Of a DNA stretch of 54,000 bases, positions 4,999 to 19,835 are shown in pieces. Both the position numbers and the translations under genes were made by a program. Origin of the DNA: an uncultured delta proteobacterium (lineage in GTDB: Bacteria; Desulfobacterota; Binatia; UBA9968); NCBI GenBank assembly GCA_963737905.1, contig CAVTUQ010000020.1, positions 1-54,000 on the forward strand, read 5' to 3'. Under the pieces are notes generated by a model. It did no database searches and was not told the origin of the DNA. It saw nothing but the letters and a program-made list of their open reading frames with translations. Each line of letters starts with the position of its first letter. Within the stretch, counting starts at the first letter, position 1.

Positions 4999-5376
4999 TT
5001 ACTTGAGCACTTTGTCCGCTCTTGCCAGCACGTTTGGCGGAATCGTTACGCCGATTTGCTTGGCAGCCTTAAGGTTAATGATCAACTCAAACTTCGTTGG
5101 CTGCTGCACAGGGAGATCACCCGGCTTTGTACCCTTAAGAAGCTTATCCACATAGGTGGCAGCGCCCCGGTAGTTTTCAGTAATGTCCGGCCCATAGGAC
5201 ATGAGCCCGCCCGCCTCCACAAATTCCCTACCTGGATAAATCGCTGGCAGCCGAGTCTTTGCCGCAAGGTCCGCGATCTGCCCTCGATAAGTAAAATTTC
5301 TACCTGTCAGCGCGATAAGACCATTTGCACGCCCTTTGGTCATCGCGGAGAAAGCGTTCTCCAAATCGTTTGGTTC
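4999..5376 (-). pseudogene. ABC transporter substrate-binding protein (PF04392-like), C-terminal fragment
   Basis: GGLMSYG...YVDKLLKGTKPGDLPVQQPTKFELIINLKAAKQIGVTIPPNVLARADKV is homologous to the C-terminal third of 15122-16105. N-terminal part is absent. Confidence 0.85.
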
Positions 5377-6480: not shown

Positions 6481-6635
6481 ATGGCAAAGTATCTCCAACG
6501 CTCCTGCCCCAAGTGTAACGGCTATTTGGGAATCGTAGGTCCCCGAACGTAAGGTTAAGATACCTGTGGAGGCGATCAACGGACGGTGCGTGAAATGTGG
6601 TTATCGGCTTGGGTGGGTGTTGGTTTTAGGGGAAC
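6481..6635 (+). pseudogene. Zn-ribbon family gene, frameshifted (copy 2)
   Basis: MAKYLQRSCPKCNGYLGIV, frameshift near 6538, then VPERKVKIPVEAINGRCVKCGYRLGWVLVLG. Confidence 0.7.
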
Positions 6636-6784
6636 GTTCCAATCCTTCGAGTTTGTCTGAGGCGTCGTTCGTTCAATCTCACGCTGTAGGCTTTGTGATT
6701 TGTGGGCTTACCATGCGACGCGTTTTGGTCCGTCTCGGACACTTTTCCGACACGCTTAGAGCAGCCGTTGGACTTGCTGAGTTA

Positions 6785-8022: not shown

Positions 8023-8088
8023 ATGGCGAAATATCTCCACGGCTCCTGTCGCAAGTGTGGCGACCATTTGGGGATCGTGGTCCGAGGC
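8023..8088 (+). pseudogene. Zn-ribbon family stub, N-terminal half (copy 3)
   Basis: MAKYLHGSCRKCGDHLGIVVRG; nucleotide similarity to 6481-6540; second CxxC missing. Confidence 0.7.
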
Positions 8089-8208
8089 TTAGGAGATAAT
8101 CCCACGATCGATCGAGTACGGCTCAGTTACGAACCCCGCCTTTCATGCTTGTCACGGAGCGTCGGGTTTTGTAAAAGGAGCTGACTTCTCCCAATAAATT
8201 AATTTCCA

Positions 8209-9457
8209 ATGTCAAAGATTTTCATTAGTTACCGTAGGGAGGATTCAGCTGGCTATGCACTCGCCGTCCACAGTCAACTTGTCCGACATTTTTCTAAGGA
8301 TCAAATATTCATGGACGTAGCTACCGTGGAGCCTGGAGTAGACTTCGTCCGTGCGATTGAAGAGGCAGTAGGCAAATGTGACGTTTTGGTGGCACTAATC
8401 GGTAAGCGGTGGGCGGGAAGAGAACCCGATGGTACATCACGACTCGACAATACAAAGGACTATGTTCGGCTGGAAGTTTCTGCGGCCCTGGCACGGGATA
8501 TACGGGTAATCCCCGTGCTGGTCGATGGCATGACTATGCCTAACGAAAACAGCCTCCCTTCTCCTGTCCAATCCATTACTCGGCGCAACGCAATTGAAAT
8601 TAGTAACACTCGTTTCAACTACGATGCAGACCAATTGATTACTGCGGTTCGTAAGGTTCTTGATGCGACCGAGGCCAAACGAAAAGCTGACGAAGAGAAC
8701 GAAAGAAATCGTATACAGCGCAGTCTCAAGCCTGGCCCAGTTTTTCACGACAAACTTAAAGATGGCTCACAAGGGCCGGAGATGGTGGTAATTCCGGCGG
8801 GAACGTTTCTTATGGGCGATATCAAACGGCGATGGATACGACTTCGAGCGACCCGCGCACATCGTGCGAATCACCAAGCCGTTTGCGATAGGTCGGTACG
8901 AAGTTACCTTTGAAGAATATGATGAATTCGCGGCCGCCACGGCTACCGAATTGCCAGATGATCTTGGTTGGGGTCGAGGTCGGCGCCCGGTGATTAACGT
9001 TTCCTGGGAGGATGCTGTGAGATTCGCACACTGGTTATCGTCAGAAACTGGAAAGTCTTATCGTTTACCCAGTGAGGCCGAGTGGGAATACGCGGCAAGA
9101 AGTGGCGACAAAACACAGACCTGGGCGGGAACTTCAGATGAACGAAAGCTGAGCGTTTATGCCTGGTACCGAACGAATAGCGGCGGCAAGACTCAGGCGG
9201 TGGGAGGTAAGAAGCCCAATCGTTTTGGACTATACGACATGAGCGGTAATGTTTGGGAGTGGGTCGAGGATTGTTGGCATCACGATTACAACGGTGCACC
9301 CACAGATGGGTCTGCTTGGTTAATACGTGGGGGCGTGATACGAGGGGGTTCCTGGGACAACTACCCAAAAAGCCTACGTTCGTCGGACCGGGGCAAGTTC
9401 AGCATCCATTACGGGCGTAAATTCCTCGGCTTTCGTCTCGCCCAGGATCTTGATTAA
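8209..9457 (+). pseudogene. TIR domain + FGE-sulfatase (C-type lectin fold) protein with one frameshift
   Basis: TIR: IFISYRREDS...DYVRLEV. FGE: PEMVVIPAGTFLMG, RYEVT, RPVINVSWEDA, RLPSEAEWEYAAR, GLYDMSGNVWEW, RGGSW...GFR. Removing one A at 8824-8826 joins both ORFs (DINGDGYDFERPAHIVRITKPF) into about 415 aa. Confidence 0.88.
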
Positions 9458-9495
9458 CCCCCACTTTCTCTTTGTTCTTTTACCCTTTCTCGGCT

Positions 9496-9598
9496 GTTGA
9501 GTTCACCGAGTGGACGCCGGATGGTCAACCTGAGACATTCGAGGTTTGTAGGGTTGAGGGAAGATAAAGCGGCCAGGAAGGTTGTGCGAGAGGGTTGA
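9496..9598 (+). pseudogene. ATP-dependent DNA ligase (LigD-type) C-terminal OB-domain stub
   Basis: VEFTEWTPDG, frameshift, then (H)LRHSRFVGLREDKAARKVVREG*; hallmark LigD ending 'EWT.DG.LRH..F.GLR.DK'. Confidence 0.8.
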
Positions 9599-9642
9599 AC
9601 CCTCTAAAGAAAACACATTACGTTTATATGCTCAGCTGTCTT

Positions 9643-9912
9643 TTAGTTGTCGTGTTTGGGTTTAAGGCTATAACGAATCAAAAGCGTCGCGCCGTCGCCG
9701 TTCCAAGATTCGCTGAGAACTCGGTCGCCAGGACGCATCATCCTTGTCATCGTATCATGGCAAATCGACATCCTGGGTTTCGAGTTTGGATCGCCTCCTA
9801 TCTGAGAGTAGAGACTATCCGATTCCAAATCCAGGTAAGGTTTTCCACTGTGCTTCGCCTCGTTTAGAATAGCCAATAGTTTGTTGCGAAAGTCCCATGC
9901 CGTGGGTGTCAT
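9643..9912 (-). CDS. Small hypothetical protein (paralog of 130-381)
   Basis: GGAGG SD; full-length similarity to 130-381. Confidence 0.8.
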   Translation of the reverse strand: MTPTAWDFRNKLLAILNEAKHSGKPYLDLESDSLYSQIGGDPNSKPRMSICHDTMTRMMRPGDRVLSESWNGDGATLLIRYSLKPKHDN

Positions 9913-10180
9913 TACTTTCCTCCAGTTGAATTTAGAACCTAACTCCGTGGAAATATGCAGAAAACAACGATTAGGCGGTTCGCAGACTCTCTTTAAGAGT
10001 TCCGACTTCCTTTTGGGGCGTTGATTTTGCCGTCCACATACGGTCGATCGAATCTAAGGCTGAATTTGGAAAATGCAAGTCTGATTTGCCTGGAATAAGA
10101 AAAAAATTGTCGAATTGTAGGACTAGCCCTCGGTTGGCAGGGTTTATATGGCATCTGTCCTGTACGTGTCGACGAGGTTG

Positions 10181-10285
10181 GGTTGACAGGTGACAGGTAG
10201 TGACGCTGCTTTTGGGAACTTTCTATAAATCATTTTCATATAGGGATTTTCTAAAATCCGCGTCACCTAGTGTCACCCGTCACCC
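10181..10285. repeat. Inverted iteron arrays flanking an AT-rich spacer (origin-like)
   Basis: Left arm GGTTGACAGGTGACAGGTAGTGACGC (10181-10206) matches the reverse complement of 10260-10285 at 20/26. Three (G/T)TGAC units per arm; 53-bp AT-rich spacer. Confidence 0.65.
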
Positions 10286-10447
10286 TGGGCTAAATCGCCC
10301 GTTGCCATTGCCCACCCTTTCGACTGAGGCATCGCGGTTCTTGCCACCTCACGACTCTCTTAGCCAACTCTGCCAATCTCCGCACTTCTGAGACTTATCC
10401 GTAGCGGTCTCCGGCTTGCTCTACCCATCCATTGGGGGAGTAGCCGC

Positions 10448-10528
10448 TTGCCTGAAATCCTTCTGCTAATTGGGTCGTGTCTCATCGTCCTCGGCATCGT
10501 GCTTCTACGGCGCAAGAACCGGGGTTAG
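10448..10528 (+). CDS. 26-aa single-TM micropeptide
   Basis: SD GGGGGAG 7 nt before TTG; MPEILLLIGSCLIVLGIVLLRRKNRG*; ends 4 nt before the next gene. Confidence 0.45.
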   Translation: MPEILLLIGSCLIVLGIVLLRRKNRG

Positions 10529-10532
10529 ATCA

Positions 10533-10970
10533 ATGCTGAGAAAATGCTACGCCGCCGAAAGGGGCATGGTGTCCGACGGATGGATTTCGCTGGACCCCGC
10601 CGACATTGGACTCGTCGAATCGGTCTACAAAAAGACCCTCCGCGAGGGCGAGGAAAGACTCATGCTCGCGGTGCTAGAAAATGCCGTTGAATATTTCCAG
10701 AAGTATGTGCTTGCACGGAACCCTCGCGGGAAGCAGCTATTTCAAGAAGCCGAGGAATGGTTTCTGGATAAGGACGGCGATGGGCTTTTCTCGTTTGAAA
10801 GCATCTGTGCGACATTCGGGCTGCATCCTGACCACATACGGAAGGGCTTGATGGTCTGGAAGGAAGCACGGCTCAAGACCCCTTCTGTTCAAAGCCACAC
10901 TGCAAGTCGATCCAAGCTGGCAAAGAGTCGCGTCAAGCACACTTCAGTCAGATTGTCCAAGACTGCATAA
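10533..10970 (+). CDS. Conserved hypothetical protein (EERLMLAVLENAV family)
   Basis: ExRLMLAVLE.AV..FQKY...LF.EAEEW...FSFE.IC...GL.P..IR.GL motif, recalled as an expanded family in Binatia-like genomes. Confidence 0.75.
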   Translation: MLRKCYAAERGMVSDGWISLDPADIGLVESVYKKTLREGEERLMLAVLENAVEYFQKYVLARNPRGKQLFQEAEEWFLDKDGDGLFSFESICATFGLHPDHIRKGLMVWKEARLKTPSVQSHTASRSKLAKSRVKHTSVRLSKTA

Positions 10971-10999
10971 ATCTCTCTTGTGGAGACCTTCCTCAACAA

Positions 11000-11173
11000 A
11001 TGAACACGGCCGATTTAGAACGCCTCAAGGAAAAGGAAGATGCCGTAATCAAAATGATTGATAGCTGGCCGCGAATCTTTCAGCTCCTCGTCTACCGGCA
11101 GCTTTACGCTTTCGGTATCCGAATCGGCAATATCGATTCTGAGATTGAGAAAGAATTGAAAAAGGATGCCTGA
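11000..11173 (+). CDS. 57-aa hypothetical protein (below the ORF track cutoff)
   Basis: MNTADLERLKEKEDAVIKMIDSWPRIFQLLVYRQLYAFGIRIGNIDSEIEKELKKDA*; fills the gap in a co-oriented run. Confidence 0.45.
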   Translation: MNTADLERLKEKEDAVIKMIDSWPRIFQLLVYRQLYAFGIRIGNIDSEIEKELKKDA

Positions 11174-11239
11174 GAAGTCTCAGCCGGAGTGTGATTCGAT
11201 GCCTAACAGTACTCCAATCGCAAACCTACAGAAGGTCCA

Positions 11240-11614
11240 GTGAAGAAAATTCTTATCGTGGAAGATAACAGTGATTACCGTGAGATAATGAATCTATTCA
11301 TAACAAAGATTGGACATCGGGTTATAAAGGCCAGCAACAGCAAAGAAGCCATCATGTACGCGGAAGCCGAAGGGCCGGACCTCATTTTCATGGATATGGA
11401 TCTGCCGGATCTGGACGGAGTCAATACAACCGCATTACTTAAACAGAATTCCAAAACCTCTCACATTCCTGTGGTCGCGTTTACGGCGTGCATCTCTGAA
11501 CTATGGCTGGAAAAAGCTTCAAGAGTGGGTATTACAACCTACTTGATAAAACCGGTGTCACTTCAGACTTTAAAGGAGACCATCCAGGATTACACTAACC
11601 GGTCGCCCACCTGA
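11240..11614 (+). CDS. Single-domain response regulator (DivK/CheY-like)
   Basis: ILIVEDN, PDLIFMDMDLPDLDG (phospho-Asp), IPVVAFTA, YLIKP. Confidence 0.9.
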   Translation: MKKILIVEDNSDYREIMNLFITKIGHRVIKASNSKEAIMYAEAEGPDLIFMDMDLPDLDGVNTTALLKQNSKTSHIPVVAFTACISELWLEKASRVGITTYLIKPVSLQTLKETIQDYTNRSPT

Positions 11615-11628
11615 AGCGAGGTATAGCT

Positions 11629-11889
11629 TTGAATCTTGTATTTTGTTTCGCCCTTTTTCTCGGTCTCGCTGTGGCTACACAAGGCCGGGCCGAGGAATAT
11701 TACATTTACCACGATCCCGATGGAAAGTTGGTTATCTCGAATAAGGAGCCGCCGCCAGGGAGCAAAATCATAAAACGACTTCCCGGAGTGACTGATAGGG
11801 AAGTCCCCCAAGCGCAAGCCCAAGAACCTGGTAAGACGCCGCCAAACGGACAGCCAGAAGGTTCACTGAAGCCGCCCAACACGAAGTAG
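11629..11889 (+). CDS. Small secreted DUF4124-like protein
   Basis: Signal peptide, then YIYHDPDGKLVISNKEPP and a Pro-rich tail. Confidence 0.7.
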   Translation: MNLVFCFALFLGLAVATQGRAEEYYIYHDPDGKLVISNKEPPPGSKIIKRLPGVTDREVPQAQAQEPGKTPPNGQPEGSLKPPNTK

Positions 11890-11894
11890 AGCAC

Positions 11895-12065
11895 GTGCAA
11901 ACCCACCTTACAATCATAGCTCTAAGCCTGTGGTTAATTGTATTCCTGGGCCTAACCTGCGTCGTCTTCGCGTTGGTCTCCATGTGGAAGGAAAGAACCG
12001 GTTTGGCTCGCCGCTTCGAGGCATCATCTAGTTCACCGTCGCCATCGCAGGTTCTTGTGCTGTGA
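11895..12065 (+). CDS. Small membrane protein, 56 aa
   Basis: GTG start 5 nt after the previous stop; long hydrophobic segment IIALSLWLIVFLGLTCVVFALV. Confidence 0.35.
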   Translation: MQTHLTIIALSLWLIVFLGLTCVVFALVSMWKERTGLARRFEASSSSPSPSQVLVL

Positions 12066-12141
12066 TCGCCGTCCTCGCGGGATACGTCCAGAAAGCTCGG
12101 TCGTTGGAGAAGGTCACGAACCGAGTGAAGACTGTTGGTTT

Positions 12142-12693
12142 TTATTTTCTGTTACGTCTAGAGAGCAAAAAGCCTAGACCAAGACCTATCAATAAAGATC
12201 GCACGGGGTAGCGACGAACCAAGCCCCAGAAGTCTTCTCCCAGATGTTCAAATTTTTTCTCTTGCAGATAATTACTTGCTGATTCCAACCCATCCGCTAC
12301 TTTGACTGCATTTGTGGCTAAATGCGGCGCCTTTTCCCGAATCGCGCTAGCCAGTGATTTCATCTTCTCACCGATGACAGGTGCCGCCTCGTTCGCCTTT
12401 TTCGCGGCAGTCGCGCCGAACTCCTGTGCCTTGGCTGACATATTGCCAATGGCACCGCCTGTCCTTTCGTTGTAGTCTTGAAGACGCCGCTCCATCTCTT
12501 GCTCGGCCTGCTCGCGAGCGTATCCGTACCTCTCCTGTAGCAAGCCGATCAGCTTGTCCTTCTGGCCGCCGATCCTGTCGACATCGTCATCAGTGAGCTT
12601 ACCCCACCAGGTTTTAAGCTCGCCGCGCATTCGCTTCCACTTTCCTGCCAAAATGTCCCCGTTTATGGAACCGGTCTCGATATTATTTTCCAT
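12142..12693 (-). CDS. CsbD-like domain fused to an ElaB/DUF883-like tail
   Basis: GKWKRMRGELKTWWGKLTDDDVDRIGGQKDKLIGLLQERYG (CsbD/YjbJ); C-terminal VRRYPVRSLLIGLGLGFLLSR (DUF883-like anchor); SD GGAGG before ATG 12693. Confidence 0.85.
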   Translation of the reverse strand: MENNIETGSINGDILAGKWKRMRGELKTWWGKLTDDDVDRIGGQKDKLIGLLQERYGYAREQAEQEMERRLQDYNERTGGAIGNMSAKAQEFGATAAKKANEAAPVIGEKMKSLASAIREKAPHLATNAVKVADGLESASNYLQEKKFEHLGEDFWGLVRRYPVRSLLIGLGLGFLLSRRNRK

Positions 12694-12791
12694 TTCTCGC
12701 TTACCTCCTATACTTTCAGAATAGTCCAAGAAATCCCCCGTGCAAGTAGGTTTGAGAAAAGGGCAAAGGGGAGCCGGAGCTTCTTGAAAGC

Positions 12792-12830
12792 CTAGCTGCC
12801 CACAACCCTCGTTAGAAGATCAGCCAAGCG
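12792..12830 (-). pseudogene. S1/P1 nuclease extreme C-terminal stub (copy B)
   Basis: RLADLLTRVVGS*; DNA matches the end of the 14515 copy (CG.TTGGCTGATCTTCT.ACG). Confidence 0.6.
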
Positions 12831-13229
12831 AGGGGTTAGAATGCGATAAGCGCCCAATCCAGCGGATAGAAATAACTCGTTAGCAGGGTCGTCAAGTAAA
12901 AGGAAACAAGGAATGTCAGGGTGGCTAGAGATAGCCGAAGCAGGTTGGCCATGAGATGATCCTCCCGGTGCTCTTTGTCGCTGCCTCATATCGTGAATCC
13001 AGGGCGAACGCCAGACTCGCTAATTTCAAGCCCACTGTCACCCGTCACACCCTATCGGGATGGCGCGAGATAAGCTCCTCTATTATCTTACCGCTCAAGC
13101 AAAAATTACTGTCGTCAGTTAATTCTTTCTCTATTGAGACTTGAGTTCTTGGTATTTCTGTAAACGTTTGACGCACATAGGATAGGATTGTGTAGTGGCT
13201 CGCAGGTTGCAGTCTTATGACTCTGCAAG

Positions 13230-13442
13230 ATGAAACACCTGATATATCATGGCTACTTAGTCACGATCGCGGCGAATAATGAAAAGGGAGTCTGGCGAGG
13301 ACATGCAATTATCAACTGGGACAAGGGGAAATTTGACTTGCATGATGAAGTTTGTTTCCCAACCGATATGGAAGCCGAGGAACACGCCGTAGAATTGGCA
13401 AAGCATTGGGTGAACAATCACCTTCAGAAAATGCAGGGGTGA
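13230..13442 (+). CDS. CV_2116-like small protein
   Basis: YHGYLVTI...GVW...I.W...FPTDMEAEEHAVELAKHWVNN. Confidence 0.65.
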   Translation: MKHLIYHGYLVTIAANNEKGVWRGHAIINWDKGKFDLHDEVCFPTDMEAEEHAVELAKHWVNNHLQKMQG

Positions 13443-13473
13443 CTAAACGCGAGTGCTTGAGGGGGGGGGGGGG

Positions 13474-13680
13474 ACCGGCTTGCACTAACAACGTATCCCA
13501 CAGGAAGCACAGGGGCCGCTACTACCACCGTGCAATCCTTGTTTCCACCCTTTGGCGTCCCAATCCGTCCATCGTTACGGTAAGCAATATTCGTCGCAAT
13601 CTCGTAGCTCTCTTTTGCCCACGACTCAAAGTCATTGTTTACAAGTTCGGTGAGCCGCCCCACTGAAACTCTTGGCGGTT
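13474..13680 (-). pseudogene. S1/P1 nuclease C-terminal fragment (copy C)
   Basis: NRQEFQ, frameshift, then RLTELVNNDFESWAKESYEIATNIAYR...APVLPVGYVVSASR; collinear with 14590-14800; ends at a G13 tract. Confidence 0.8.
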
Positions 13681-13887
13681 TTTCCCAAGTGAGTAAGCCG
13701 GTGGGCAGAAAAGGTTATCTGACGCAAGAGTAGAGTAAGCGCAATTATCCTTCGCACTCGATCATTCTCGTGCCGCACTATCTCCCTGTGTCAAAAAGTC
13801 ATAGAGGCTGCGCAAAAACGCCTCAGCAGAGTGATTCTTTCATAGCTACACAAGCGTAAAGATTGGGAGCAAGAGAGCCAAGCTACT

Positions 13888-13903
13888 TGGCATTTCTATT
13901 GCT
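13888..13903 (+). promoter_or_regulatory. Putative sigma54 promoter
   Basis: TGGCAT-TTCTA-TTGCT (GG-N10-GC), 100 bp upstream of CDS 14003. Confidence 0.6.
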
Positions 13904-14002
13904 GCTTTAAATAGAGACGCAACCCAACGCGTTGGATTAATAACTAACGGCCGGTATCGATGCGACTCTGGAATCCGATCTGGACGAGACTGGGAGATTC
14001 AA

Positions 14003-14389
14003 ATGAAAACCCAAAAATGGAATGTTGCCTTAGCGTTAGCGTTTTGTTTTATCGCGCCCGCGTCTGCCATCTCTGGGCCGACTTTAATTCGTCCAACAAC
14101 TGAACGAATTCTAGTGACTAGGCCAATAGCCTGGACCAGTTATGCGGATAATGCGTATGACTACAAGGGCGTCGTCGCAAGCTGGGAGAACGCTGTAATC
14201 TTCCAGGACGGCATTTACTATCTTAGCTCTCCCGTATTTGGGCCGTGGCCAGAAAAGGCAGCGGGTCGTTATTCGATTATGGGCGAGAAATCTCTCTATT
14301 CGATTCAGGGCGAAGGCGGATGGCCCGGTCTCGATGTGAAGCAAACACTCATCCCTTCTCTGCAAGTAAAAAATGAGTACGTAAATTGA
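14003..14389 (+). CDS. Secreted hypothetical protein (possibly truncated)
   Basis: SD GGGAG; signal peptide ending ASA; no recognised domain. Confidence 0.6.
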   Translation: MKTQKWNVALALAFCFIAPASAISGPTLIRPTTERILVTRPIAWTSYADNAYDYKGVVASWENAVIFQDGIYYLSSPVFGPWPEKAAGRYSIMGEKSLYSIQGEGGWPGLDVKQTLIPSLQVKNEYVN

Positions 14390-14514
14390 TCCAGATGCTT
14401 CATTGGTAATTCCATGAAACACTTCAATCCGTTAACCACCAAAAAGTCTCGGTTTGGAAGACAAAAAGCGACAGGAAGGTTAAGCCTCTAATCTGAGATG
14501 AAGTCTTCCCTCAC

Positions 14515-15037
14515 TCAAACCATTCCAGTTAGCTGCGTCAGAAGATCAGCCAACCGGTATCCCGCCAGAATTATCCTTCGATCAGCAATGCGGCTCGCAC
14601 TAACAACGTAGCGCACAGAAAGAACGGGGGCCGATGCGACCATCGTGCAGTCCAGCTTCTCACCCTTCGGAATTCCAATCTGTCCCCCACTACGGTAAGC
14701 AAACTTCGCCGCAATCTCGAAGCTTTCCTTGCCCACGACTCAAAGCCGGTGTTCGCAAGTTCAATGAGCTGACCCCGCTGAAAACTCCTGCCGGGTTCGC
14801 AGTGCCGTCGCCTCGTTTCGCAGGCGGGTCAGATTTGAGCTTGAAGTAATCACCCCGTCCCAAAACCTGTGTAGGTTCATCGGTTGCCGCGTTTGCGTCA
14901 CCCGGACACAGATTTCGTTTCCACCCCTATCGCCGTTTGGGTAGTCAAAGGTGAAAAGCTGTGCCGTGTGTAGGGGCTGGTGTATGTCGCCTATGAGATG
15001 GAACAGCCATGCGAGTGCGATTGCCCTTCGCTCACGG
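14515..15037 (-). pseudogene. S1/P1 nuclease, C-terminal half with two frameshifts (copy D)
   Basis: AIALAWLFHLIGDIHQPLH...DRGGN...NLHRFWD...WxxES...AGYRLADLL, the Zn-binding S1/P1 motifs. Frameshifts near 14783 and 14730; N-terminus missing. Confidence 0.9.
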
Positions 15038-15121
15038 TTGCCACCTATGCCATATCCGATGAACAAGGGGCAAGGAAAAAGCTCTGGACAACCGGCAATG
15101 AACCGCAGTAAACAGGCCAGT

Positions 15122-16105
15122 ATGGGTAAGAAAACGATCATTGTTTTTCTGGTCGGGTTACTTCTCGCTTCAGTCCATCTCGCCGAGGCGCAGCAGCTGA
15201 AGAAAATAGCGCGAATCGGTCTTCTCTTTCAGTCCAGCCCCTCGTTTACCTCGCCTCAGATCGACGCATTGCGCCAAGAGCTGCGTGAGCTGGGTTATGT
15301 GGAGGGTAGAAACGTTTCCTTTGAGCGCCGATACGCAGAAGGAGAACTCAATCGGCTGGCTGCTCTTGCCGGTGAATTAGTTCGGTCTAAAGTCGATGTC
15401 ATCGTCGCCACCTCCACTCCTGGGGTCTTGGCTGCCAAGAATGCGACCAACGAGATCCCCATTGTCTTCCATACCATCAACGATCCCGTAGAGACTGGTG
15501 TTGTTGCTAGTCTTGCTCGTCCAGGCGCAAACATTACGGGGGTGACGATGGGTGGCGCGGAGTTGTATGGGAAACGGTTGGAGCTTCTCAAGGAAACGAT
15601 ACCAAGACTCTCCCGTGCGGCGTTCCTGTTGAATCCCACAACTTCAGCCGGTCAACTGAACTTAAAGGAAACACTGGCCGCAGCTAAAGCATTACTGTTA
15701 CAGATTCAATCCCTTGAAGTGCGCACGCCGGAGGATATCGCGCCGGCATTTGATGCAGCAATCCGCGCAAAAAACGGTGCGATGCTGATCACGCAGATCC
15801 CCCCGATCTCAACGCATTCAAAACAGATTATCGACCTGGCGGCAAAGCATCGGCTGCCCGTGATCTACCCCCAAAGGCAATGGTCCGACTCCGGTGGTCT
15901 AATGAGTTACGGAGCAAACGTAAATGACAGCTACCGGCAATTAGCTACCTATGTGGACAAGATCTTGAAGGGTGCAAGGCCGGCGGACTTACCCGTGGAG
16001 CGATCAAGGAAATTGGAGTTCATCGTCAATCTCAAAACCGCCAAGCAGATCAGGCTAACGATTCCACCTAACGTTCTGGCTAGGGCAGATCAGGTGATCA
16101 AGTGA
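15122..16105 (+). CDS. ABC transporter substrate-binding protein (PF04392-like), orphan
   Basis: Signal peptide (AEAQQ), LRELGYVEGRN, DPVETGVVASLARPGANITG, KRLELLKE, GGLMSYG, IPPNVLARAD. Confidence 0.92.
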   Translation: MGKKTIIVFLVGLLLASVHLAEAQQLKKIARIGLLFQSSPSFTSPQIDALRQELRELGYVEGRNVSFERRYAEGELNRLAALAGELVRSKVDVIVATSTPGVLAAKNATNEIPIVFHTINDPVETGVVASLARPGANITGVTMGGAELYGKRLELLKETIPRLSRAAFLLNPTTSAGQLNLKETLAAAKALLLQIQSLEVRTPEDIAPAFDAAIRAKNGAMLITQIPPISTHSKQIIDLAAKHRLPVIYPQRQWSDSGGLMSYGANVNDSYRQLATYVDKILKGARPADLPVERSRKLEFIVNLKTAKQIRLTIPPNVLARADQVIK

Positions 16106-16139
16106 GGAAGCACCATGGCAGAACCAGATAAAAAGCCTG

Positions 16140-17816
16140 TCACATTGGAATACCTTTTCGATCCGGATTTGTAAGCCATCGTTTAACGTCCGAAAGAAAT
16201 CGCCATACATCATCCGTTGACGGCCTAATATATGATTGAGTGTTGGGGTCTTCTCCGATTTTATCAAACACATTAATCAACCACTCTGGCCCGTGACCCT
16301 GTGCTCCTAGCTCCGGCAGCCATGATTCCATCTCTCCACGACGAACCACGAACAATCCGTAATTTTCAAGTCTGTCGAAAAGATTATTAGCTGCCTCTTT
16401 GTCGTTTGCCAATAAAATCGCGACTCCTCCATCTTTGTTCATGTCCTTTCCAGAGTCATCGAATTTTTGCTTAATTTGACCACGCATCTGCCCAAGAGAT
16501 TGCCGCTCAATTTCAGGGATAAAACCACTTCCTACGAAATCGCTCCATACGGAGCCGCCCTCTTTAAAAACGTCGATATCGACGATTCCCGCTGCAGGGA
16601 TACCCATCTCGCGAAGTGGGCGAATAATTTTCGGTATTGTTTGCCTATTTTGTGCGTGTATAAAGAGGCAATTCGGAATTCCCCATTCCGGCTTAAAACG
16701 TTGTAGCCTTTCGTTGATCTCTTGGTAGAAAACGCGGTCGGAATCGGCTTCCCCAACTATTACGAATTTGTAAAACAGCCCATTTAGTACCCCAGTGGAA
16801 CGCAAGATAGGATTTCTCATTAGCTTTAAAATAGATTGACTGGGCAGAATACGGGCTGTAGCTATGCCTTCTTGATACGTCAATCTAACAATGTTCAGAG
16901 GGACTCCCGATTGTATGCAGCCCATAACAAACTCTGCGCTATGAGTAGATACAAAGAGGCGTTTTTGTGAGCCGGTCGTAGCCTGTCCAATTTCTTTGCC
17001 CAAATTGAAAGATAACGATGGGTGCAAGAAGGCCTCCGGTTCATCTATAGTGATCACTTCGGGATCTCCTGCAATAATTGCGGTTATGATCCCAGTAAAA
17101 GCTTTGACACCATCACTGGCTGCCTCTATCGGCAAAGCAGCAGCGTGAAATTGAACCGCCCCCTCGTGTAACCCCCTTTCTTCCATTGCGTTTAAGGGCT
17201 CACGTGGCGACAGCTTAAATCGCAATCGCCCCAAGTTGGTGAGATCAATTACAAGATAGCTGCCGAACGCGTCGTGAATAATTCTCCGAACTTCCTTTCG
17301 TTTGACGTCATTGCTGAATAAGATCCCGAGGTTGTTAATAGGATGCTGCAAGTCACCACCGGCGTCTTCGTTCACAAGGGCGATTCGATTTTGTCCGTTA
17401 AGCGTTAATGTGTTGAATTGGAGGTAACCCTGGCAAAAATAACCTTTATTGGCATTCGTGTTTTGTAAGCTTCCGATCAAGCCATCCCGATTTATGGCGA
17501 TTCTGGTGTTGTACCAGCCAACCAGTATCTCCCCAGGTCGCAAAGGAGGATCTAAAGAACCAGAACGTGGCCCTCGTGTGATACGGCGCACTCTTTCCTC
17601 TGCATGTTGCGGCATCAAATTCTCAAATTCTATATCCTCAAGAATAACGTCAGTTGCAAATGCCGACCCGCGTACACAAAAGTGGTGGATTTCGGAAAGA
17701 ACCTTACTCTTGCCCGAATTGTTCGGGCCAACAAAAATTGTAATTGGGGTTGCCTCTATGATTTGTGGAGGTGCATCCCTAATCTTTCCAAACTTTAGCT
17801 TAACTGTTTTAATCAC
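16140..17816 (-). CDS. OLD-family ABC ATPase-TOPRIM nuclease
   Basis: Walker A GPNNSGKS, signature-like SDGVK, Walker B IDEPEAFLHP, H-loop STHS, TOPRIM IVGEADSD and DID. AT-richer than its neighbours; GTG start at 17816 preferred. Confidence 0.85.
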   Translation of the reverse strand: MIKTVKLKFGKIRDAPPQIIEATPITIFVGPNNSGKSKVLSEIHHFCVRGSAFATDVILEDIEFENLMPQHAEERVRRITRGPRSGSLDPPLRPGEILVGWYNTRIAINRDGLIGSLQNTNANKGYFCQGYLQFNTLTLNGQNRIALVNEDAGGDLQHPINNLGILFSNDVKRKEVRRIIHDAFGSYLVIDLTNLGRLRFKLSPREPLNAMEERGLHEGAVQFHAAALPIEAASDGVKAFTGIITAIIAGDPEVITIDEPEAFLHPSLSFNLGKEIGQATTGSQKRLFVSTHSAEFVMGCIQSGVPLNIVRLTYQEGIATARILPSQSILKLMRNPILRSTGVLNGLFYKFVIVGEADSDRVFYQEINERLQRFKPEWGIPNCLFIHAQNRQTIPKIIRPLREMGIPAAGIVDIDVFKEGGSVWSDFVGSGFIPEIERQSLGQMRGQIKQKFDDSGKDMNKDGGVAILLANDKEAANNLFDRLENYGLFVVRRGEMESWLPELGAQGHGPEWLINVFDKIGEDPNTQSYIRPSTDDVWRFLSDVKRWLTNPDRKGIPM

Positions 17817-18263
17817 TTTCCAATCTTTCCACCATCGAGAGCATGACAATAATTTCCGATGGCTGGTGATCTGCTCTCATATATCAAGTCGGTGGTCAGG
17901 GATACAATCGACTTGATAATTTCGTGAGCCGCCTCGTGTGTCAAATCCGATACGCGCCCGTTTACCTCCTGCCGGGCCTGGCTTCATACACGAGATCCGA
18001 GTAAGGCCCTCCCCCTAGTGTGCCCTCGTTGATCATCGTTACTGACATCGATCTCTAACCGTGTGAGTGCTGCCGTTGTGAGTTGATGCGCTTCTATATC
18101 TGAACTTCGTTTTTGAAAGTTCGAGACGAGACGCAACGCAAACTCTTCTCGCGAATGCCTTCTTGACAAGCGTGTATTTCAGAAGTGGCAGAAGTGACAG
18201 ACAACAGAGCATCGATTGAAAACGTCACCGCAACAAATCACCACGTTAGAAAATTTTTGCTCA

Positions 18264-18279
18264 CGGCATACTGATTGCT
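18264..18279 (+). promoter_or_regulatory. Putative sigma54 promoter
   Basis: CGGCAT-ACTGA-TTGCT (GG-N10-GC). Confidence 0.5.
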
Positions 18280-18350
18280 CTTTCATCGATCATAAAGACT
18301 TTTGCCGAAGGTCCCGGTCGTAAAACAAAGCGTATAAAGCGATCACGCGC

Positions 18351-18425
18351 ATGCAGGCGATCAATGGACGGTACCTGAAATGTGGTTACCGGCTTGCGTA
18401 AGTTTGGGTCTTCGGGAATCGCCTC
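18351..18425 (+). pseudogene. Zn-ribbon family stub, C-terminal half (copy 4)
   Basis: MQAINGRYLKCGYRLA*VWVFGNR; DNA closely similar to 6566-6635 (GGCGATCAA.GGACGGT.C.TGAAATGTGGTTA.CGGCTTG). Confidence 0.7.
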
Positions 18426-18565
18426 ACTCGCCGATCTGCTTTAACCCCCTTTGATCTTTCGCCTATTGACGATGTATAAGACGCTGAAGAGTTCATACGC
18501 GCCCGGGATAACTCCCGCCACAGGAACCGTCACGATCCCGGAACAATAAAAAGGCAGAGACGTCG

Positions 18566-19717
18566 ATGAGCGACATATTCATCAGCTACAAGCGCGAAGA
18601 ACAAGCCATAGCGAAGGAACTTGCGAATGCGCTGGAGGAGGAAGGCTGGAGTGTATGGTGGGATCCGAATCTACGGGCAGGTGAACACTTTGATGACGTG
18701 ATCGAGAAGGCGTTGAATGAGGCTAAGTGCGTCGTAGTGATATGGTCCAACCTTTCGGTGAACTCCGAATATGTAAAAGCCGAAGCAACGGAGGCTTTAG
18801 AGCAAAGAAAACTTCTTCCCGTGAAGATTGAGAACGTAAGCCTGCCGTTTAGGTTCAAAAGAGTTCACACACTGAGTTTGCTTGGTTGGGATGGGTCAAA
18901 AGACTTCTCGGAGTTTCGCAAACTTGTGCAAGACATTGCGGCGATTGTTGGCCCTACGGCGACCAAGCGTCAAGAAAAACAGCCTGCCGACAGACAAGAA
19001 AGTGAGGCCGTTGATCCCCTCCGGTCTGAGAGCCGTAACAGCATCGGCATGGCGTTCGTGCTGATTCCAGCAGGAGAATTTCTGATGGGGTCCATCGATA
19101 AGCTCGAGGAGGAGCGGCCCGTCCACAAGGTCCAGATCACTCGTCCCTTTTATCTAGGCAAGTATGCAGTGACACAAGCTGAGTGGGAAGCTGTAATGGG
19201 GAATAATCTCAGCCGTTTTAAGGGCGATCTCAAATGCCCCGTGGAGATGGTCTCCTGGGAGGATGTGAAAAAGTTTATTCGATGGTTGGACGCAAGAGAG
19301 GTTGAGCGCTACCGTCTGCCGACGGAGGCCGAATGGGAGTATGCGTGCCGTGCCGGGTCCGTGACCGCCTATGGTTTTGGGAATAACAGCAATCAGTTGA
19401 GCGAATACGCCTGGTACGAAGCAAACGCTGATGAGCAAACCCACCCAGTAGGCCAACTCAAGCCCAATCCTTGGGGCCTGTACGATATGCACGGCAACGT
19501 CTACGAGTGGGTGCAAGACTGGTACGGGGAATATCCAGCAGAGGCGGTGACCGACCCCCAAGGCCCATCTGGTCCGAGTTCGAACCCGGACCGGGTGAAT
19601 CGGGGCGGTTGCTGGCGTCATGACGCATGGGCCTGCCGGTCCGCGCGTCGCGGCCGTCTCACACCCGGCTCCCGCCGCGACGATCTTGGGTTCCGCGTGC
19701 TGAGGATGGTCCGGTAG
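18566..19717 (+). CDS. TIR domain + FGE-sulfatase (C-type lectin fold) protein
   Basis: TIR: DIFISYKRE...VWWD...SEYVKAEA. FGE: NSIGMAFVLIPAGEFLMGS, KYAVTQ, PVEMVSW, RLPTEAEWEYACRAG, GLYDMHGNVYEW, RGGCW...GFR. Confidence 0.93.
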   Translation: MSDIFISYKREEQAIAKELANALEEEGWSVWWDPNLRAGEHFDDVIEKALNEAKCVVVIWSNLSVNSEYVKAEATEALEQRKLLPVKIENVSLPFRFKRVHTLSLLGWDGSKDFSEFRKLVQDIAAIVGPTATKRQEKQPADRQESEAVDPLRSESRNSIGMAFVLIPAGEFLMGSIDKLEEERPVHKVQITRPFYLGKYAVTQAEWEAVMGNNLSRFKGDLKCPVEMVSWEDVKKFIRWLDAREVERYRLPTEAEWEYACRAGSVTAYGFGNNSNQLSEYAWYEANADEQTHPVGQLKPNPWGLYDMHGNVYEWVQDWYGEYPAEAVTDPQGPSGPSSNPDRVNRGGCWRHDAWACRSARRGRLTPGSRRDDLGFRVLRMVR

Positions 19718-19835
19718 CGCTTGGCGCCTCTACGCTTGTGCTCTGCCTCCGCTTTGGTGATTTCATAAATTACTTCCCGACCCCGAGCGGTCTGGTCCAG
19801 AAACGGGATTTGGTTGCGCGCAAAGGAGGAACTCA

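Follow-up and report, generated by a model that had tools for sequence, protein, structure and literature searches.

The window analysed here is the whole of contig C20 (CAVTUQ010000020.1, 54 kb) from the assembly GCA_963737905.1 of an uncultured delta proteobacterium (Binatia, UBA9968), and it carries two genes that join an N-terminal TIR domain to a C-terminal FGE-sulfatase domain of the C-type lectin (CLec) fold. The C-terminal tips of both genes correspond to the variable regions (VRs) that are rewritten by diversity-generating retroelements (DGRs), whose other parts are a template repeat (TR), a reverse transcriptase (RT) and an Avd protein. The two genes are probably orphaned, paralogous TIR-lectin sensors of the cytoplasm whose tips belong to clades rewritten by DGRs in other bacteria, with gene 2 being intact and fixed and gene 1 being a frame-shifted pseudogene. 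A DGR would once have written the tips and would then have been lost. The original prediction, which was made from the DNA letters alone, had proposed either remote targets or frozen products of a DGR, and of these the frozen products are the better reading, given a family that is targeted by DGRs elsewhere and the lack of a local RT or TR.

Domain composition of the two genes

Both genes consist of a TIR_2 and an FGE-sulfatase domain as originally predicted, and in both the FGE-sulfatase match extends to the last residues and ends in the predicted scaffold RGG.W...R...R...GFR, which aligns with the scaffold of verified VRs. Gene 2 (18566-19717, forward strand) is intact and encodes a cytoplasmic protein of 383 amino acids, for which Pfam gives 86.4 bits for TIR_2 (cut-off 28) and 181 bits for FGE-sulfatase. 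The nearest solved structures to its TIR domain are AbTIR and PdTIR (E 5e-4 to 3e-3). In the AlphaFold2 model of gene 2 the mean predicted local distance difference test score is 74, with about 90 in the TIR domain and less than 50 in the tip loop. A Foldseek search with this model gave TvpA of Treponema denticola (PDB 2y3c) as the top match (E 4.7e-13, 30% identity), followed by PvdO and human FGE. Neither gene encodes an N-terminal signal peptide, and the sequence opens directly with a TIR strand.

Gene 1, which the original prediction had treated as a single gene, is split into two open reading frames (ORFs) on the forward strand that are in different frames. The 5' part (8209-8913) contains a SARM1-like TIR domain, scoring 51.5 bits against the TIR_2 cut-off of 28, together with the linker and the first FGE strands, and the second ORF (8864-9457) contains the FGE domain. 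In comparison with the translations of the intact homologues P0117 and P0118, frame 1 tracks the homologues to '...IPAGTFLMGDI', is lost after position 8823 and reaches a stop at 8913, and frame 2 continues from 'NGDGYDFERPAH...', i.e. from 8825, so that the 3' part of the gene comprises 8825-9457 (FGE-sulfatase, 150 bits). The switch was placed at the A run at 8824-8826 because the homology ends in frame 1 and resumes in frame 2 there. Gene 1 is therefore a pseudogene, provided that the additional base at 8824-8826 does not stem from an assembly error. Logan contigs from 4 of 14 soil and subsurface runs (word share at most 0.19) cover the window in short pieces only, and none is listed over the frame shift or over 19589-19663; the uncovered window parts (e.g. 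16421-17623) carry no information.

The original prediction of a retained glutamate in both TIR domains holds. In gene 1 the glutamate of 'KDYVRLE' aligns with that of 'KDWVHKE' in the SARM1 TIR, the closest solved relative (E 3e-6), and in gene 2 E73 aligns with the glutamate at the end of the AbTIR and PdTIR alignments and is invariant in 21 TIR-FGE homologues. We take the aligned glutamates to be the catalytic residues. Identity between the two genes is 25% in the TIR domain and 40% in the FGE domain, and the genes are distant paralogues. This agrees with the part of the original prediction that assigned different subtypes to them, but the independent fusions deduced from it are better replaced by domain shuffling within the TIR-FGE family. 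Evidence for such shuffling comes from the metagenomic TIR-FGE proteins P0117 and P0118, in which the TIR resembles that of gene 2, with a near-identical 'VKIENVNLPFRFKRVHTLSLL' stretch, and the FGE domain resembles that of gene 1.

TIR-FGE proteins as DGR targets in other lineages

In a scan of GTDB with one genome per species 79 loci were kept, and two of these, L008 (Methylococcaceae) and L017 (Bryobacteraceae), contain full-length TIR-FGE matches. Both are canonical cassettes with the order FGE target, bAvd, RT, TR, and TIR-FGE target, and template adenines account for 12/12, 14/15, 16/16, 9/12, and 13/15 of the mismatches between TR and VR. TIR-FGE proteins are thus genuine DGR targets in other lineages. 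In L008 the TIR-FGE target shares the cassette with an nSTAND1-FGE target. Closer to the window, a set of 60 related genomes was searched, whose tallies include the unpublished G006 and G012 although no locus cited here comes from either. DGR-type RTs, 49-54% identical to the L017 RT, are present in five of the 60, of which four belong to a single genus of the window's order and the fifth to the window's family, and a TR/VR pair was verified in three of the five. The two genomes from the window's own genus show group-II-like RT matches only.

A tree of the FGE domains (169 rows, tip removed, quick maximum-likelihood version) places gene 1 in a clade of 17 rows with 99% support, eight of which are verified VRs, including five from the same-order genus. 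The sub-clade of four rows that contains gene 1 itself, a paralogue on contig C33 of the same assembly, and sequences from G032 and G002 has no verified VR. The tip of gene 2 was compared with the peptide encoded by the TR of L103, an unrelated metagenomic DGR, and 19 of 32 residues agree. None of the 11 template asparagines is retained in gene 2, whereas 19 of the 21 other residues are kept, and at the DNA level mismatches occur at 24 of 29 template-adenine sites against 14 of 67 other sites. This pattern is no more than suggestive, because it might come from a written VR and would equally fit a conserved scaffold with fast-evolving loops.

In the related genome G032, L204 (G032:C2:95193-95931, minus strand) is an FGE pseudogene with three TGA stops and an asparagine-rich, TR-like tip (RNKSNSNADNRGNNVGFR), and adjoins, at a distance of 3 kb, a TIR-FGE gene (G032:C2:92184-93467). 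The two tips are 72% identical, and 17 of the 33 mismatches are at adenines of L204. L204 may represent either a template that has decayed or a former VR left unmutated. Its genome, which is 98% complete, lacks a DGR-type RT.

Absence of DGR components from the assembly

The original prediction had found neither RT nor template near the two genes, and neither a DGR-clade RT nor a TR was found in the window or in the assembly (6.7 Mb, 46 contigs, 87.5% complete, 6.7% contaminated). Its suggestion that a copy of the template might be found elsewhere in the genome, next to a DGR-clade RT and avd, did not hold in any of the searches. The assembly has no DGR-clade RT, its sole RVT_1 locus being a group II intron RT/maturase with a TIGR04416 match of 333 bits, a GIIM domain, and a group II RNA from Rfam alongside. 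The tblastn searches in which the L008 and L017 RTs and Avds served as queries likewise found this RT only (E 1e-8). An Avd in a DGR context is missing from the assembly as well: a single bAvd match exceeds the cut-off, but this protein, encoded between ABC-transporter genes, is better described as 23S_rRNA_IVP (105 versus 48 bits), and further matches on C3, C9, and C25 are weak (E 4e-4 or weaker) and below the cut-off.

The TR was searched for in several ways. Assembly-wide blastn with word size 7 found no TR, and its only long match was to the C33 paralogue, which is coding and 66% identical. An ungapped scan of the whole assembly, in which template adenines were forgiven, did not find one either, with 47/161 and 49/151 non-adenine mismatches in the best non-self windows. 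A tblastn search of the assembly with seven TR-encoded peptides, one of them with an in-frame stop read as W, gave no matches other than the tips of the FGE paralogues themselves. Self-repeat scans of the window detected no adenine-biased repeat pair, and comparison of the gene 2 VR DNA with the 60 related genomes gave matches to the conserved FGE core and no TR. The genome, as represented by this 87% complete assembly, gives no indication of a functional DGR. The adenine-tolerant scan also returned false best matches in a 424-nt unbroken poly-T run (C14:118266-118689 in G000), which is probably an assembly artefact.

Evolution of the tip of gene 2

The VR-equivalent tip of gene 2 (19589-19696, forward strand) is poor in adenine, rich in codons ending in C or T (NNY), and devoid of Lys, Glu, Gln, and Met. 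For codons 342-377 the NNY count is 26/36 versus 166/347 in the remaining gene and the adenine content is 9% versus 26%, which makes the tip the extreme of 348 sliding windows. The tip is also conserved with the orthologue. The closest homologue of gene 2 is P0002 on the metagenomic locus L088, which is 81% identical. Their tips differ at 2, 3, and 9 sites in codon positions 1, 2, and 3, respectively, and in 4 of 36 residues. The corresponding numbers for the FGE domain outside the tip are 13, 10, and 34 sites, at 88% amino-acid identity, and the residue divergence of the tip thus equals that of the remaining domain. DGR mutagenesis targets codon positions 1 and 2. Because the changes in the tip are mostly at position 3, they reflect ordinary divergence under purifying selection, and the tip of gene 2 is fixed and not hypermutating. 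P0005 and P0015 are only 59-64% identical to gene 2 overall and have an almost identical tip.

The 60 related genomes do not encode a close orthologue of gene 2, the best full-length matches being in G032 (34%) and G023 (31%). Gene 2 is therefore an accessory gene, and its tip is fixed. The original prediction of a diversified receptor repertoire in this lineage finds no counterpart in these data, as there are two copies only, of which one is frame-shifted. Gene 1, whose tip is at 9341-9436 on the forward strand, has no close orthologue; the best relative in the tree is 63% identical, and the longer proteins, which are multi-domain FGE proteins, reach at most 58%.

Sequences behind the genes

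Efficient homing of DGRs depends on an inverted repeat directly downstream of the VR, according to the passages on this subject in PMC3240598 and PMC5758913. We searched 142 rows for hairpins with a stem of at least 5 bp and a loop of 3-8 nt within 110 nt after the stop codon. Such hairpins, mostly GC-rich and with GAA/GNA-type loops, follow 13 of the 14 verified VRs, and none was found behind gene 1, gene 2, the L088 orthologue, or the C33 paralogue.

Verified FGE-type VRs are frequently followed by a pyrimidine-rich tract with CTTT and TTAC repeats, which is located after the stop codon and ahead of the GC hairpin. This tract recurs in Pseudomonadota, Acidobacteriota, and the window's own order (L008 4140-4200, 7114-7170, and 10262-10320; L017 1907-1960 and 5166-5230; L185-L188; window 9458-9492). 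In the 60 nt after the stop the mean CTTT count is 1.57 for the 14 verified VR tails, with three or more in 5/14, and 0.70 for 127 other FGE gene tails, with three or more in 10/127. At the same loci 200 nt further downstream the means are 0.29 and 0.28 per 60 nt, and counts of three or more do not occur (0/128). The two tails quoted in the original prediction are present in the sequence. The tail of gene 1 (9458-9492, forward strand) belongs to the CTTT-repeat type found after the verified VRs of L008 and L017, and has four CTTT in 60 nt, as has the C33 paralogue. The tail of gene 2 (19718-19760, forward strand), in contrast, is unremarkable, being 69% pyrimidine and partly conserved with L088 over about 40 nt, with no CTTT repeats and one CTTT in 60 nt. 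The gene 1 tail is therefore of the VR-associated type, although it may be no more than a homologous 3' flank. In the window's family another kind of tail was observed, namely arrays of GTTCAAA-like repeats of 9-10 nt directly 3' of FGE genes (L197, L200, L171, and L191 in G002, G028, G001, and G032, respectively).

The CTTT/TTAC tract could be a cis element for target recognition that marks former targets such as gene 1, and it could be undescribed. The word 'hairpin' is absent from the main text of PMC10907252 and PMC7517822, and 'cruciform' occurs in PMC5758913 within the inverted-repeat passage only, although no literature search was aimed at the tract itself.

Alternative explanations

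Several observations weigh against a DGR past of the two genes. The codons of gene 2 that the original prediction quoted as the outcome of adenine mutagenesis are present, and the NNY bias and low adenine content are real. However, if only amino acids with a synonymous choice are considered, the NNY count in the tip is 17/25 versus 100/190 (Fisher p = 0.20; genome-wide 56%), and the bias is therefore mainly one of amino-acid composition. For 161 homologous FGE C-termini, median adenine values are 15.6% within the tip and 24.7% upstream of it, and NNY is usually 70-80%; the nine TR-verified VRs labelled among them have 10 to 20% adenine, and gene 2 with 7.3% has the sixth lowest value. Low adenine and high NNY are therefore a property of the clade and not of this locus, and most of the 161 members share the make-up without Lys, Glu, Gln, and Met, mostly without a detected TR. 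Gene 1, which had been thought to be similar, has an ordinary tip with an NNY count of 26/42 versus 79/155, an adenine content of about 21-22% versus 25%, and three Lys. Past DGR action on either tip is not provable. In addition, gene 2 groups in the FGE tree only with L088 and has no tie to verified targets, the CTTT tail also follows the C33 paralogue, which has no TIR domain, so that it is possibly plain flank homology, and 52 of the 142 scored rows have no hairpin, so that its absence is not specific.

These observations would be expected if the two genes were ordinary TIR-FGE paralogues that had never been DGR targets and owed their VR resemblance to the shared ancestry of the fold. The missing hairpins, the tip conserved with the orthologue, and the rarity of a TR within reach (about 5/79 GTDB loci and 1/80 metagenome loci) point in the same direction, as do the TIR-FGE genes of G032 and G023, genomes that are 98% and 94% complete and have no DGR-type RT. 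However, both full-length TIR-FGE genes that were found across GTDB are DGR targets, and about half of the FGE clade of gene 1 consists of verified VRs. Gene 2 also replaces every asparagine of a foreign TR and keeps nearly all other residues, the tail of gene 1 resembles those after verified VRs, and an asparagine-rich, TR-like pseudogene is located 3 kb from the TIR-FGE gene of G032. We consider this explanation rather unlikely. It is very unlikely that one or both tips are still diversified in trans, as the original prediction of remote targets implied, by a DGR in the unassembled 12%, on a plasmid, or on a phage. A DGR could sit in the unassembled part given the incomplete and partly contaminated assembly, targets more than 100 kb away from the RT are documented in parts of PMC5758913 and PMC10907252, and DGR-type RTs do occur in related genomes, including one of the same family. 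But no TR, DGR-clade RT, or DGR-context Avd was found in 6.7 Mb, neither gene is followed by the hairpin that efficient homing needs (PMC3240598, in the part covered here), the changes in the gene 2 tip are mostly third-position ones, gene 1 is frame-shifted, and the two same-genus genomes offer group-II-like RTs only.

The FGE domains could further be imagined to be enzymes of the formylglycine-generating or sulfoxide-synthase type, with the TIR domain having a regulatory or scaffolding role. The strong FGE-sulfatase match and the position of PvdO and human FGE close behind TvpA in the fold search would be in line with this. However, the matches to the NCBIfam enzyme equivalogs are far below the cut-offs (PvdO 122 and 139 versus 500 bits, EgtB 62 and 55 versus 360, GldK 75 versus 350), the top structural match is the non-enzymatic TvpA, and the architecture fits the DGR-type sensors described in parts of PMC10907252 and PMC7159879, so that an enzymatic function is hardly credible. 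With respect to the TIR domains, PADLOC and NCBIfam give sub-threshold matches only, which weighs against the predicted NADase activity and defence role of the orphaned sensors. Nor do the genes qualify as part of a Thoeris system (a ThsB TIR with ThsA). ThsB_TIR scores 20.4 bits versus a cut-off of 21.2 and ThcB4 36-38 bits versus 220, and the PADLOC ThsB matches reach E-values of only 6e-6 to 6e-7. There is no SIR2 or SLOG gene among the 29 neighbouring ORFs and no ThsA or other known partner in the window.

Comparison with known systems

TvpA is a surface lipoprotein. As the variable protein of a DGR with an FGE-type domain, it is similar to both window genes in fold, in the C-terminal tip, and in the RGG.W...R...GFR scaffold. 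In contrast to TvpA, the window proteins are cytoplasmic and start with a TIR domain, the genes lack TR, RT, Avd, and hairpin, and comparison of gene 2 with its orthologue shows no hypervariability in the tip. The TIR domains match TIR_2 above the cut-off like the NADases AbTIR, PdTIR, and SARM1, with the glutamate aligned, but the identity to these is low (E only 3e-6 to 5e-4) and the NADase activity of the window proteins is predicted.

The arrangement of the domains has precedents. Passages in Dore et al. 2024 (PMC10907252) and Kaur et al. 2020 (PMC7159879) describe DGR-diversified sensors of conflict systems with C-terminal CLec/FGE domains and effectors, including TIR, that are always N-terminal, and they also describe remote or incomplete DGR loci; remote targets have further been surveyed in PMC5758913, as far as the relevant sections show. 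The sensors with TIR, peptidase, or STAND modules thus have the same layout as the window genes, which differ in being minimal two-domain proteins without NTPase, MoxR/vWA partners, or retroelement. In the parts of Vallota-Eastman et al. 2020 (PMC7517822) covered here, dispersed paralogues of variable proteins are reported that have no RT nearby, one of them with remnant TR-VR homology, and it is proposed that the parts for diversification are removed once a good variant has been selected. The orphaned state of a DGR-type sensor is therefore already described, and it is the state proposed here for the window genes, except that their genome keeps no remnant TR homology and that their N-terminal domain is a TIR.

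If the orphaned-sensor reading is correct, gene 2 would be an intact receptor of fixed specificity whose tip now evolves by point substitution under purifying selection. The lectin-fold tip would bind one particular ligand, probably derived from an invader, and binding would drive self-association of the TIR domain. The TIR would then cleave NAD+ or make a signal nucleotide, and this output would stop the infected cell. More tentatively, the history of gene 2 might be that of a receptor which was first matured and then frozen, with the CTTT/TTAC tract as a cis element that outlived the retroelement. In that case a DGR would have written the gene 2 tip, the retroelement and the homing hairpin would later have been lost, and the chosen variant would have been kept by purifying selection in at least two lineages, those of the window and L088, with P0005 and P0015 having near-identical tips. 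Gene 2 would now be a germline-fixed TIR sensor. We regard this joint reading as possible but doubtful.

Genomic context

In its first 20 kb the contig resembles an accessory region in decay. Many ORFs there belong to no family, and there are duplicated fragments of ABC_sub_bind (15824-16103 versus 5001-5280) and of an S1-P1 nuclease (13476-13681 versus 14591-14797). These and other internal repeats (5-386 versus 14834-14960 and 9669-9917) have diverged to 58-80% identity, which points to rearrangement and decay. From 20.4 kb on housekeeping genes follow, a lipoate ligase and then pyruvate dehydrogenase E1, E2, and E3. A tRNA scan and an Rfam scan of the window gave no match.

A small gene that is rich in cysteines and zinc-ribbon-like (CxxC...CxxC) is present in three copies in the window and precedes both TIR-FGE genes as well as the L088 orthologue. 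The copy just upstream of gene 1 (8023-8184, forward strand, 53 amino acids with an N-terminal CxxC) is possibly intact, another one at 6481-6639 is interrupted by stop codons and a change of frame, and upstream of gene 2 there is a 3' remnant of 16 codons (18351-18401, forward strand) that ends in ...AINGRYLKCGYRLA and has lost its 5' half. The same 3' end is found upstream of the L088 orthologue at the start of that contig (L088 1-80). The small gene may encode a partner of TIR-FGE. Position 18352 is a point at which metagenome contigs break, and one metagenome contig joins 8050 to it. We considered whether the small gene had been split by insertion of the stretch of 8.08-18.35 kb, but rejected this in favour of the simpler assumption of two homologous copies, each of which is partly decayed. 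The joint would then be explicable by a contig of a relative that has a single small gene with ends resembling the two copies.

Divergently oriented to gene 2 there is a gene for an OLD-family ATPase with a TOPRIM nuclease domain (16140-17849, reverse strand; Pfam AAA_21, AAA_15, and OLD-like_TOPRIM). Its PADLOC matches to Old, AriA, and GajA are weak and partial. It is a neighbour of the defence type, and the association with gene 2 is one of proximity only.

Implications for the TIR-FGE family

An FGE tail that is rich in NNY codons and poor in adenine is by itself no indicator of an active DGR. If the tip of gene 2 does not owe its sequence to a retroelement, the locus would represent routine decay of a DGR-type sensor family. 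For the class of sensors that join TIR or other effectors to CLec domains, no ligand is given in the parts of PMC10907252 and PMC7159879 covered here. Should a retroelement have shaped this tip before it became fixed, however, the ligand of gene 2 would reveal what bacterial "antigen sensors" of this kind are selected to recognise. As an intact protein of two domains with a fixed tip, gene 2 also lends itself to testing more readily than a hypervariable protein would.

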